From assembly GCF_030013205.1 (NCBI RefSeq), contig NZ_CP122648.1: a DNA stretch of 64,000 nt, one strand, 5' to 3'. Positions 48,801 through 51,800 of this stretch are shown in pieces. This stretch comes from Escherichia coli. GTDB lineage: Bacteria > Pseudomonadota > Gammaproteobacteria > Enterobacterales > Enterobacteriaceae. Position numbers: made by a program. The stretch's first letter is position 1; the number at the start of each line of letters is the position of its first letter.

Positions 48801-51800
48801 AAAGATATAGCCAATGAAATAGATATTGATAAAGTAAATTTCATGCATAACCTCTATACTGGATTCTTTTGGCAAAGACATTACGATGAACGTAACTATT
48901 TAAAAATAAATCGTTCTGCTATTTCAAACAGCGCAAGATTTCACTTCCACTTTAATTTTAATGATTTGCGGGATATTTACAAAGACTATAATAATAATCA
49001 TGAAGATGATAATTTTGATAAAATGCAAAAGATTTTTTTAGCATTGAATGAATTTAAGGAAAGAACGGAAATAAATTACAGGGATTATAGGAAAGTATCA
49101 AAATATGTAGATGATAAAGTCGATTTATTCTCTAGCATTGAGCAATATTTACGGTGGGTAATTGAGAAAAATAATGACTATAATAAGGAAAATTATGGCG
49201 ATATAAAAGACAAATATGCCAAACTTATTGTCGAAAGAAATGATTTAGTCGATACTAAGGATCAATTAATTAAAGAGGATTTTTACTTAAATAATAAAGG
49301 CAATAAAGATAAAAAAGATGCGGAAAGAATTAATGAGATTAAGGGGATAATAAAGGTGATAGATGGAAAAATACCAAATATAAGTAAAGAGATTCTACAT
49401 CTTAAGGATGAAACAGAGAGATTGGAGAAAGAGTATCAACAAGAAAATACACTTAATGATGTAGTTCAAAATATCAGGAGTTGGCTAAAAGAAAATGAAA
49501 ATATGGTGAAAGCTATTAAGAAAACTGATACTGAATAACATGGCATATAAATAAACGGATCAAGTCGTTCCTGTGATAATGAGGTCATGCGAAAAGACGC
49601 TTACTCATCAGTAATCTGGTGTACTTTAATTAAACCAGTGTAGTTGATGTGTAAGCGTTGATGTTGGGAGACGATTAAATGGTTATATCACTACTACGCC
49701 CTTTCCAGACGGCGTATAAGAGTGCAACATGTTGAGTTTTCCGAGTGAATGGTGCATTTTACTAACCGAGCCATTTGAATCAACCAACGCAATAAAAAAG
49801 ACTGGAATAATAAGCCTGTATTTATTATTCATCGCAATCGCACTCTACGGTTTTATCCTGCAGAAATGAGACTACTTCCAGCGGTTGTGGATTATCCCTG
49901 GGCGATAGTCATAGTCTTGTGTCAGGATTCACAAATGACCTGTTACCTGACATGGATATAAACACAACATAGAGTGCGGTAGTTAATCTGAATCATCTAT
50001 TTTTCGGCTACACAGCACAAAACAACATTATTGATTCTTTATAAGAGAGAATCTCTCCATTATTTTTATATAAATCATTATTAAGAAAATCCAGAAGCTC
50101 TTGCCTTACACTATAAATATTGACTTTTTGGTCAACCAACGACAGTAATATATCCTTGATACCTTTTAATTTCATATTTCTATCAGATATTGTATTAAAA
50201 GTGAAGATGATATTACGTTTATTACAACTGGAGAACCAATATTTTAGAGTGTTATTCGTCCACTTTGTTGGTGTCTTAATTAGTTGCGCTGTTGTTGTTT
50301 TTACATTGTTAAATGTAGAACCGCTAAAATTTGTCCCGACGCACGAAATGAAATTCATCTCTGAATTGTCAAAATTGCAATTCTTTATCTCACACATATC
50401 AAGGTTAACATCATGAAATGTCGAATATTTCATGTTTGCATGTGAAAATAAACATGCAATAAACGTTATATATTGCAACCTGGCATTACAAAAAGATTTA
50501 TTTTTAAAATCAAAACAACAGGTTTTTTTTATTTTGAAATTGTTATTATATCTGCAATGTAAAGAAATCATGTTTTTTATTAACTGATAACACCATTGTG
50601 ATGATTCTGGTAATTCATAGGGATGTAAATGGATGTTTTCATCGAATATAACCTGTGCGTTATGGTTGTTTATTGAAGATATATGGAAGCTATCATTTGT
50701 TAAAGCTATGGTTGTGCTAAAATTATGGTGGTGATCAGCGCTCATGAAATCAAATGTAACAATGTCGTTGTTTCCTTTCTTTTCTTTGTGATATGCGTTT
50801 AAAAAAGAAATATTTTCGATCTGTTCATCAGTTAATGTAAATGGCATTTCGTCATCAAAGAAAGCGTAATCGGCATTTGGGAGAGGAATACTCTCAATTG
50901 AGCATAGTTTTAATAAAAAAACATGAAAACAATGAAACATGTTTTTATACATAAGAGAACTTAATCGCTGTTGTATCTTCTGTAGTTGTCCTTTGGGAAA
51001 TAAATGCTGTAAATTTGAAAATGAGCCATCTAAAATATATTTATATGTAAAAAGGTCCTCTCTCTGACCAGTTATCAAAAAATCGTCAGGTGATTTAGAA
51101 AAACGATTGAGATGACATAAATATTCCATTTGCTCCGTGTCTATATACTTATGGGGGACTACGTAGTTTGGTGGTGTGCCAATAAGATTATCCATAAATC
51201 ACCTTGATAAAAGTTAATAAAATCTCTTTATTTTAACCTCGACAATAAAAGCGGCTATAAAAAATCGCTCATTTTCTGATGCTGCGGTTAATCCGTCGAA
51301 TGTGCCGTTAACCCACTAAAAATTGCAAATCCAGGGTAAACACCCTGGGTTAAAATGGAAATAATGAGCTATTTTTTACAGTATTCACCGGTAATATAAG
51401 TAATACTTGTTGCTAACCTAACTAGCAGTACAGTTAATTAACAACATAGAAGTTATTGTTTTTCAAACAACTCAACAACTCAATATTGCACGCCGGAGGA
51501 TTTATGGTCGCTAAATTAAAACCAGATGTTCTTTTTAATACTAATCCTTTTTTAGAAGCAATGAATAAGGAGAGACTTAATCATAAAGGATATTGTGATA
51601 AAATTGCTTTAAGTATTAATGATAAGAAATATAATGTAAACTCTAAGGATATTGAAAATATTCTTGATGGCAAAGGGGATTTATTTAAAAAACGTACACT
51701 GTGGGAGTTTGTTCGCGATCTTTTTCCCGGCTCTCATATTAAAGAAGTCAAAGGCTTAATTTACGAATTTGTCACGAAAGTTGATAACAAAGCCGAGGTG

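Follow-up and report, generated by a model that had tools for sequence, protein, structure and literature searches.

A duplicated and conserved hairpin downstream of two type III effector genes in the phoU-yieH island of Escherichia coli

An imperfect palindrome of 62-63 nucleotides stands shortly after the stop codon of each of two paralogous type III effector genes in E. coli. The hairpin that it forms is real, unannotated and of an ordinary kind, and no other part of the old duplicated block that holds it, or of the surrounding island, is as well conserved. In our reading, which we give about an even chance of being right, it folds at the 3' ends of the effector mRNAs, as an RNA stem-loop that marks or protects these ends, and one of the two copies is shared with the convergent gene yieH.

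Structure of the hairpin and its locus

The locus is the Z5211-Z5214 island, located between phoU and yieH. It was described by Sankar et al. 2009 (PMC2646131) as ORFan DNA without recognisable features, and the Z5214 gene carries the name espY5' in PMC4048457. In the window, i.e. the whole 64 kb stretch of DNA that was analysed, the following features are relevant.

46868-46928, + strand: upstream segment of unit A, 77% identity to 51327-51387
47040-49538, + strand: paralogue A, an 832-aa type III effector, EspY5-like (Z5214 type), from the RefSeq annotation of an identical locus and close homologues
49539-49596, + strand: 3' UTR spacer from the stop of paralogue A to hairpin A
49597-49658, + strand: hairpin copy A, 62 nt; covariance model 85.6 bits, E = 6e-18
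49660-49832, - strand: decayed yieH remnant, from sequence similarity to yieH
50008-51195, - strand: gene of a pentapeptide-repeat protein, 395 aa, between the two units
51327-51387, + strand: upstream segment of unit B, homologous to 46868-46928
51504-53911, + strand: paralogue B, espY4 (T3SS effector EspY4), annotated as frameshifted in this strain
53912-53968, + strand: 3' UTR spacer from the espY4 stop to hairpin B
53969-54031, + strand: hairpin copy B, 63 nt; covariance model 89.7 bits, E = 6e-19
54048-54713, - strand: yieH (6-phosphogluconate phosphatase), convergent with espY4

Copy A begins 58 nt beyond the stop codon of paralogue A (49536-49538) and copy B 57 nt beyond that of espY4 (53909-53911). 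A preliminary description of this DNA had placed two copies with common arms just after the two paralogues, and these positions agree with it. The spacers between stop codon and hairpin cannot be aligned with each other. Spacer A terminates in CGAAAAG, which on the - strand reads CUUUUCG directly after the hairpin. At copy B the stop codon of yieH (54048-54050) is 16 nt from the 3' end of the hairpin, and the whole convergent intergenic region between espY4 and yieH is short, 136 nt.

The outer arms are the same in both copies, ACGCTTACTCATCAG / CTGATGTGTAAGCGT, and consist of 15 positions with one T.T mismatch; the inner arms, CTGGT / ACCAG, are also the same and form a 5-bp inner stem. In copy A the outer stem is made up of eight pairs, the T.T mismatch and six pairs, and inside it an A-U and a U.G pair precede the inner stem, which encloses an AT-rich loop of about 15 nt. 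Copy B shares the arms and has an additional 3-bp helix, CAC/GTG. Overall, both copies are imperfect palindromes with 22-23 pairs, one mismatch, one 1x1 loop and one bulge; the hairpin loop is 14-15 nt and the base of the stem is G+C-rich (ACGC/GCGU).

The predicted fold energy of the + strand is -27 to -32 kcal/mol (z = -6 to -7), no shuffled sequence is equally stable, and the hairpin still forms when the entire 3' UTR is folded. A gapped pattern of the arms matches the window twice, at these two sites, with 0 matches expected from shuffled sequences, and a covariance model built from natural variants also finds only these two sites in the 64 kb. The earlier proposal of a duplicated, structured 3' UTR element belonging to both paralogues is supported. 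A long-range helix flanking copy A was also predicted by folding; it was rejected, as it is absent at copy B and unsupported by the strain variants.

On the + strand no T-run is found 3' of either hairpin, so on this strand the element is not a canonical terminator, as already noted in the preliminary description. The + strand tails are UGAUGUUG at copy A and UGAAGUAA at copy B, and in degenerate form the tail at copy A is UGAYGUUG.

Distribution and conservation

The hairpin was found in 1108 of 5426 complete E. coli genomes. It occurs in one or two places in each, always at the phoU-yieH locus; roughly one in five E. coli, O157:H7 among them, have the island. A search of plasmids and phages gave 0 matches to the hairpin, and when 100,044 species genomes were scanned exactly with degenerate arms, the only hits were two contigs of E. 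coli that had been mis-binned into a Collinsella MAG. Clustered at 50%, the very small effector protein family has 39 representatives, and the homologues recovered are all from Escherichia, all with the same hairpin downstream. The comparison of covariation is therefore confined to Escherichia.

An Rfam scan (E <= 1, 14 kb around the locus) places no family at either hairpin. Together with the copy number, at most two per genome and all at one locus, this rules out a REP, BIME or ERIC (IRU) identity; a match to a REP or IRU family is what would have spoken against the preliminary description. Genuine REP/BIME sequences are present in the window at 45004-45080 and 46625-46686, as sub-threshold naRNA4 matches in Rfam. 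An origin from a MITE or IS, for which terminal inverted repeats with a target-site duplication and independent insertions in different contexts would be expected, was also rejected: both copies have homologous flanks on the two sides, and the flanks of the 94+ copies recovered are A-type or B-type only.

The conservation of the hairpin is best seen against the divergence of its surroundings. Between units A and B the coding DNA of the effectors is at most 66-70% identical and the proteins about 30-35%, and the flanks within 150 nt have an identity of ~50%. The two hairpins differ at 4 of 44 paired sites versus 8 of 19 unpaired ones. All four paired differences are located mid-stem, and the 15-nt outer arms are identical. 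When divergent A lineages are compared, 1-2 of 44 paired positions and 6-17% of the flanks differ; the unpaired positions that differ from the window copy number 3-4 of 18, and another pair of lineages has 0 of 18. The unpaired part of the hairpin drifts as fast as the flanks.

To describe the type of change we compared the hairpins of 13 E. coli genomes and 59 metagenome contigs, which gave 21 distinct variants. Pairing is retained in every homologous locus found, where its loss would have spoken against the preliminary description, and the changes are compatible with pairing in the effector-sense RNA. Invariant pairs make up 13 of the 23. Seven pairs vary on one side only, and the result is always G.U on the + (effector-sense) strand and A.C on the - strand. 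Further, the conserved T.T mismatch becomes G.U in three variants. Counted by cells, 93.4% are paired on the + strand versus 89.2% on the - strand. Mutation bias is not behind this asymmetry, because in the flanks C>T (60 on the + strand) is not commoner than G>A (98).

There are no double compensatory changes among the 21 variants, and the support for RNA pairing therefore comes from about 8-9 one-sided changes versus 1. In a sign test this corresponds to p ~0.02-0.04, and the value is weaker if two singleton metagenome variants are left out. In a scan of within-species diversity the stems are only ~2-fold less polymorphic than the flanks; therefore, the argument is based on the type of change and on the deeper comparisons.

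Copy A, beside the dead yieH, has both a larger number of variants with G.U on the + strand and a higher frequency of them than copy B, beside the intact gene. This fits a constraint on both strands at copy B and on the effector strand only at copy A.

Extent of the duplication

The duplicated unit consists of the effector gene, the hairpin and the 3' end of yieH, and the hairpin was duplicated long ago together with both its flanks. The preliminary description was right about a duplicated unit; the unit is, however, larger than noted there, as it reaches past the hairpin into yieH, and the yieH remnant at copy A had been missed, as had the sharing of the hairpin with convergent yieH. This remnant contains a piece with the stop codon and 3' end (~49660-49715) and a mid-gene piece (49721-49768) with 80-81% identity to yieH. 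A 49-aa ORF in it, 49683-49832, has SNGSVSKMHHSLGKLNMLH versus SNGPVSKMQHSLGKLNMLH in YieH.

The remnant also accounts for the sequence GGAG(A/G)CGATTA, previously listed as shared by the two copies. It does follow both of them (GGAGACGATTA at 49668-49678 after copy A and GGAGGCGATTA at 54041-54051 after copy B), but this is no motif in its own right: it spans the yieH stop codon and its surroundings, which at copy A belong to the decayed gene, and it is common to both copies because the remnant follows copy A. A small ORF behind the SD-like GGAG was rejected, since its ATG is not kept (ATT or TTG in several strains) and the motif is this same stop region.

At the other end, the paired upstream segments are probably a shared promoter or 5' UTR region, and give the left reach of the unit. 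Since the unit includes the effector gene to one side of the hairpin and part of yieH to the other, the hairpin lies within it, and the earlier suggestion of a recombination scar marking the unit is wrong as it was put. The yieH remnant at copy A clarifies how the island was assembled, by duplication or addition of an effector-hairpin-yieH unit.

A natural variant with a single unit, L015, combines an A-type upstream flank with a B-type hairpin interior and an intact yieH. In this variant the A-type flank is joined to the B-type interior, and the A/B junction thus falls inside the 5' arm. The yieH allele of the window travels with the island, and its identity to the K-12 allele is 66-94% per 100-nt window.

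What the hairpin may do

The structure, its strong conservation, the strand-specific substitutions, the restriction to a single locus and the extent of the duplication are established. From these we infer that the hairpin is transcribed and that its effect is either protection of 3' ends or termination. The effector mRNA (+ strand) would carry the interrupted helix of 22-23 bp, with no U-tract behind it. Termination would be diffuse and probably Rho-dependent, after which the hairpin would stop 3'-to-5' exonucleases; it may also limit read-through into antisense yieH. As the element is a palindrome, we propose that the yieH transcript at copy B ends in this hairpin as well.

It is known that Rho-dependent transcripts of E. 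coli end just downstream of stable stem-loops without U-rich tails, and that such stem-loops guard against PNPase and RNase II (Dar & Sorek 2018, PMC6061677). The hairpin corresponds to this description, being a stable stem-loop past a gene with no U-rich tail. Some observations weigh against our reading. Over the 400 nt that follow the hairpins, the + strand has C/G values of 0.7-1.4 and does not resemble the C-rich, G-poor stretches that Rho uses; the - strand, with 1.5-5.7, is rut-like. The effector genes are often pseudogenes, with espY4 frameshifted in this strain and paralogue A split in O157, and therefore selection on their 3' UTRs is not self-evident. They are barely expressed in published EHEC RNA-seq (PMC4048457), and in the EHEC transcriptome literature we found no expression or 3'-end data for the island locus; Z5214 is induced under an antibiotic condition. 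Recognition of a specific sequence is another possible reason why the arm sequences do not vary at all.

If the hairpin sets the 3' ends or the stability of the effector mRNAs, it has a small share in controlling two type III effectors after transcription, and is also one structure that serves two convergent genes. The general understanding is unchanged by this; the hairpin is a tidy example of an ordinary class of elements.

RNA polymerase might also be released at the hairpin itself, which would then work as a genuine intrinsic (Rho-independent) terminator, either in both directions or chiefly on the - strand, for yieH. Next to A-type flanks, and only there, the hairpin is followed on the - strand by CUUUU(U)CG; these are the copy with the dead yieH remnant and L015, where an intact yieH is followed by the hairpin and then by CUUUUUCGUAU. 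The G+C-rich base of the stem, the distance of only 16 nt to the yieH stop and the short convergent region would also suit a terminator. However, at copy B, adjoining the live yieH, the - strand tail is CUAUUCCC in all strains, and neither + strand tail contains a U-tract. The hairpin is not called in a terminator scan. It is much longer than typical terminators, which are compact stem-loops with a loop of ~3-8 nt and a U-rich tract immediately 3' of the stem, and it has a large loop, a mismatch and a bulge. In addition, natural variants introduce A.C mismatches into the - strand stem, one of them near the base and present throughout the O157:H7 lineage. An intrinsic terminator is unlikely.

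Somewhat less likely again is a regulatory site in the 3' UTR, bound by a ProQ-like protein that recognises double-stranded RNA or 3' ends, or cut by RNase III as in lambda sib (retroregulation), that would co-control both effector paralogues. RNase III substrates include helices of ~22-23 bp, and the hairpin, with its internal mismatch and bulge, is in this size range and has the coaxial helix of ~20 bp or more that an RNase III site should have. The arm sequences are invariant, beyond what pairing asks for, in units that are very divergent, and both copies retain the T.T mismatch, which suggests recognition of a specific sequence or shape; the constraint also sits on the effector-sense strand. 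On the other hand, the invariance of the arms can also be put down to a constraint on both strands, blocking the G.U route to compensatory change, and a search of E. coli genomes found no homologous element near other effector genes.

We consider it improbable that the hairpin serves specifically to control the EspY4 and EspY5 paralogues after transcription and is recognised by its sequence; the candidates for such an element are a site of RNase III retroregulation and a docking site for one specific RNA-binding protein. If true, it would explain why the arms and the T.T mismatch are invariant amid divergence beyond alignment, and it could couple effector expression to the convergent transcription of yieH.

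There is only a slim chance that the hairpin acts at the DNA level or has no function, as a site of recombination, the boundary of a cassette or a relic in which gene conversion keeps the two copies alike. A/B identity is confined to the two hairpins, the junction in L015 falls within an arm, and the boundary between island-type and K-12-type sequence is 22 nt from hairpin B, all of which would agree with such an element. But the island has no recombinase or mobility gene (annotation; Sankar et al. 2009, PMC2646131), and the flanks are homologous on both sides of both copies, with the hairpin interior to the unit. The loops are distinctly A- or B-type despite the identical arms, a pattern that gene conversion tracts would not yield, and at a site used as duplex DNA one would not expect a preference for changes that keep one strand paired.

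Finally, an independently transcribed small RNA, an option in the preliminary description, is very improbable: copy B is directly preceded by promoter-like hexamers (53927-53955) and copy A has a TGTGATAAT-like -10 element upstream, but such matches are at chance level in AT-rich DNA (41 found versus 40 expected), the hexamers at copy B are not conserved among strains (the -35 element changes from ATGACA to GCGACT), and a U-tail and an Rfam match are both lacking.

Relation to known elements

Several known systems resemble the hairpin in part. Integron attC sites are also imperfect palindromes, ~60 nt long; they too follow a gene at its 3' end, have a conserved mismatch and are constrained in a strand-specific way. 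They are defined by the core sites R'' (RYYYAAC) and R' (GTTRRRY). The ends of the hairpin, 5' AATAGAC and 3' GTTGAAG or GTTGATG, do not match these cores, there is no adjacent integrase (intI) or attI and no integrase in the island, and there are two copies with homologous flanks. The hairpin model also gives no match in the window's class 2 integron (32-35 kb), and an attC identity was rejected.

Bidirectional intrinsic terminators are likewise palindromes in short convergent intergenic regions, and the A-run of the A-type copies (CGAAAAG) gives a U-run on the - strand as they have. In contrast to them, the hairpin has no U-tract on the + strand, its - strand tract is degenerate by the live yieH, it is much longer and its loop is large. 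The REP/BIME stabilisers of mRNA are extragenic imperfect palindromes past genes, and the hairpin could block exonucleases as they do; however, it is not dispersed and has no sequence relation to them. The RNase III hairpin of lambda sib is also a long interrupted helix past a gene on horizontally acquired DNA, and the helix described here is of a size that RNase III could cut. It differs from sib in that no alternative read-through transcript is known for it.

The closest resemblance in the reading that we prefer is to the protective stem-loops of Rho-dependent transcripts (Dar & Sorek 2018, PMC6061677). Like these, the hairpin is stable, lies shortly past a stop codon, has no U-rich tract, and is found where an untranslated transcript would be open to Rho. 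It differs from them in being unusually long (62-63 nt, ~23 bp) and in having no C-rich, G-poor stretch immediately downstream on the + strand. It is also set apart by its position, as it is common to two convergent genes and has been duplicated together with them.

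The hairpins and their locus

Both structured elements lie where the preliminary description placed them, with the arms it reported: in each copy ACGCTTACTCATCAG / CTGATGTGTAAGCGT form the outer arms and CTGGT / ACCAG the inner ones. This gapped pattern occurs at two sites in the window, copies A and B, and at none in shuffled sequences; a covariance model built from all variants also matched only these two copies in the 64 kb. When folded on the + strand (effector sense), each copy gives -27 to -32 kcal/mol, with z-scores of -6 to -7.

Features of the effector locus in order, genes as annotated
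phoU: first gene, before paralogue A
47040-49538, + strand: paralogue A, annotated 'type III effector protein'
49597-49658: hairpin copy A
50008-51195, - strand: pentapeptide-repeat protein gene
51504-53911 (stretch noted: 51456-53911), + strand: espY4 (paralogue B), frameshifted in the window strain
53969-54031: hairpin copy B
54048-54713, - strand: yieH
adeP: last gene, after yieH

The locus is the Z5211-Z5214 island of O157:H7, which replaces the bgl-yieIJ island beside phoU and yieH in about one fifth of E. coli. Sankar et al. 2009, who do not mention the hairpin, characterised it as ORFan DNA that is rich in AT and lacks mobility functions (PMC2646131). The window is E. coli DNA, and several pig ETEC and O139 chromosomes match it at 100% identity between 46.5 and 54.3 kb. 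Pseudogenes are frequent among the island genes: in strains of O157:H7 and O145 (loci L002 and L011) paralogue A is split or interrupted by an internal stop, and locus L012 has a frameshifted pentapeptide gene. Within the 3' end of this convergent gene, about 390 nt 3' of hairpin A, lies a small hairpin that resembles a terminator and has a T-run (GAGAGAATCTCTC CATTATTTTT; 50045-50067, + strand); it could stop read-through out of paralogue A.

Elsewhere in the window, the stretch 23033-35141 begins directly 3' of glmS (21044-22873) with five ORFs of 273, 702, 555, 508 and 538 aa, the sizes of Tn7 TnsA-E; NCBIfam gave no match for these ORFs. On the opposite strand follow aadA1 (32782-33570), sat2 (33628-34311) and a truncated integron integrase (34584-35141). 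The stretch looks like a Tn7-like transposon carrying a class 2 integron at attTn7, and strain K_EC180, whose effector locus is otherwise identical, lacks it.

Distribution

The hairpin is found in 1108 of 5426 complete E. coli genomes, at one or two places in each, always on the chromosome and at the phoU-yieH locus. The plasmid collection contained it only in one mislabelled E. coli chromosome, and the phage collection not at all. Among 100,044 species, represented by one genome each, it appeared only in two E. coli contigs inside a Collinsella MAG; these JAIJJM01 contigs (L004 and L005, 'Collinsella sp.') are 94-98% identical to the E. coli island and represent mis-binning contamination. 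Among 1.8 billion clusters the effector proteins form a tiny family of 39 representatives, and no homologue was found outside Escherichia. No Rfam family matches the hairpins at E <= 1.

Taken together, the distribution, the lack of an Rfam match and the tiny effector family show that the hairpin is not a dispersed repeat and belongs to no known RNA family. With at most two places per genome, at a single locus, it is not a REP element. True REP elements are detectable in the window: REP/BIME-type palindromes at 45004-45080 (after pstA) and 46625-46686 (after phoU), which serve as a positive control, give partial naRNA4 matches below the Rfam gathering score. The hairpin is an unannotated element of an ordinary kind, restricted to one lineage.

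The duplicated unit

The likeness between A and B runs beyond the hairpin into the 3' end of yieH, of which a decayed remnant lies 3' of copy A.

Recognisable parts of the yieH remnant
Part 1: stop-codon region, GGAG(A/G)CGATTA
Part 2: about 45 nt of the yieH 3' end
Part 3, 49721-49768: mid-gene piece, 80-81% identical to yieH

The trailing GGAG(A/G)CGATTA, noted earlier as following both copies, is the yieH stop region. A 49-aa ORF across the remnant reads SNGSVSKMHHSLGKLNMLH, compared with SNGPVSKMQHSLGKLNMLH in YieH. Further, 61-nt segments 5' of the effector genes (46868-46928 and 51327-51387) are 77% identical, while the adjoining coding DNA is less alike; they are candidates for a promoter, operator or 5' UTR element common to both units. 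Because the likeness extends both into yieH and 5' of the effector genes, the ancestral unit was promoter region, effector gene, hairpin and convergent yieH, of which the island carries two diverged copies.

The island-linked yieH allele is unusual, being only 66-94% identical to K-12 per 100-nt window. K-12-type homology ends at 54054, right by the yieH stop codon, and normal identity (>95%) returns near 54840; in K-12, cbrB and cbrC follow yieH in the same orientation and the hairpin is absent there. The region 54040-54840 (yieH and the yieH-adeP intergenic region, 66-94% identical, against 95-100% from adeP onward) either represents an old haplotype linked to the island or reflects import of yieH along with it.

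The locus variants (VARIANT ARRANGEMENTS) are L009, L003 and L015. L009 has bgl-yieL-yieK together with the island. In L003, from a strain with only 89-94% identity to the window across its core genes, unit A has been lost and hairpin B kept. L015 (Logan ERR3329175 contig, 5250-8470), a third arrangement, has bgl-yieL-yieK followed by just one effector gene, which is A-like but divergent (53% amino-acid identity), and then the hairpin and yieH. Here the upstream flank is of A type and the hairpin interior, which leads on to yieH, of B type; the A/B junction lies within the 5' arm, as would be expected had the two units recombined at the only stretches where they are identical. We read this arrangement as a consequence of hairpin conservation and not as its function. 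The earlier suggestion of a recombination scar is not supported.

Conservation of the stems

Hairpin copies came from 13 genome loci and from 59 contigs of metagenomes, the latter found with a pattern that is symmetric between strands and requires only one intact arm, on either strand. The copies comprise 21 distinct sequences, among which no double compensatory change was found. In the 23-pair structure 13 pairs are invariant and seven vary one-sidedly, all changes giving G.U on the + strand where the - strand would have A.C. A conserved T.T mismatch becomes G.U in three variants, and the sole change favouring the - strand is at the terminal pair. Overall, 93.4% of cells are paired on the + strand versus 89.2% on the - strand.

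Mutation bias does not explain this asymmetry, since C>T is not commoner than G>A in the 300-nt flanks (60 and 98, + strand). At about 8-9 changes against one, two of them singletons from low-coverage contigs, a sign test gives p ~0.02-0.04. With so few changes, a pairing constraint on the + strand is moderately supported.

Differences between hairpin copies
Unit A versus unit B: paired 4/44; unpaired 8/19; flanks within 150 nt about 50% identical
Window copy A versus other A lineages: paired 1-2/44; unpaired 3-4/18; flanks within 150 nt 6-17% divergent

The outer arms of A and B are identical, all four paired differences being confined to the middle helix; the effector coding DNA of the two units is at most 66-70% identical. 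The same hairpin is retained in lineages with a broken or very different A gene. Within the species, stem diversity is only about half that of the flanks; given this modest contrast, the argument relies on the type of substitution and on the comparisons at greater divergence.

Possible function

The main reading of the preliminary description largely holds: the element is a structure of the 3' UTR that has been duplicated, and it is not REP or a canonical terminator. We give roughly an even chance to the hairpin being an RNA stem-loop that protects the 3' ends of the effector transcripts, or defines them, and that yieH shares at copy B.

That the hairpin is a true terminator, whether intrinsic or bidirectional, is unlikely. 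On the - strand, A-type flanks do carry CUUUU(U)CG, but this flank adjoins the dead yieH remnant, and the tail of the copy adjoining live yieH is CUAUUCCC in every strain, so what is conserved is not a canonical terminator. No U-tract follows the stem on the + strand, where the tails read UGAYGUUGGGAG and UGAAGUAAGGAGG, and the terminator scan did not call the element. Somewhat less probable still is that the stem serves as an RNase III site or a protein-binding regulatory site. A DNA-level site or relic is doubtful, and an independent small RNA, an option raised earlier, is unsupported and very improbable.

Both the effector and the yieH transcripts would bear the hairpin at their 3' ends, because it is a palindrome within the 136-nt convergent intergenic region. 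A two-strand constraint at copy B would also close the usual G.U path to compensatory change, and would explain the frozen arm sequences. G.U variants of the + strand occur more often in copy A, beside the dead yieH; this excess, though from small numbers, seems to fit the constraint at B.

Dar & Sorek 2018 reported that Rho-dependent E. coli transcripts end at stable stem-loops lacking a U-tract, which shield them from PNPase and RNase II (PMC6061677). For the C-rich, G-poor downstream stretch of that class the picture is mixed: the - strand has one (C/G ratios of 1.5-5.7) and the + strand does not (0.7-1.4). The hairpin is likewise stable without a U-tract, and these stem-loops are the closest described class.
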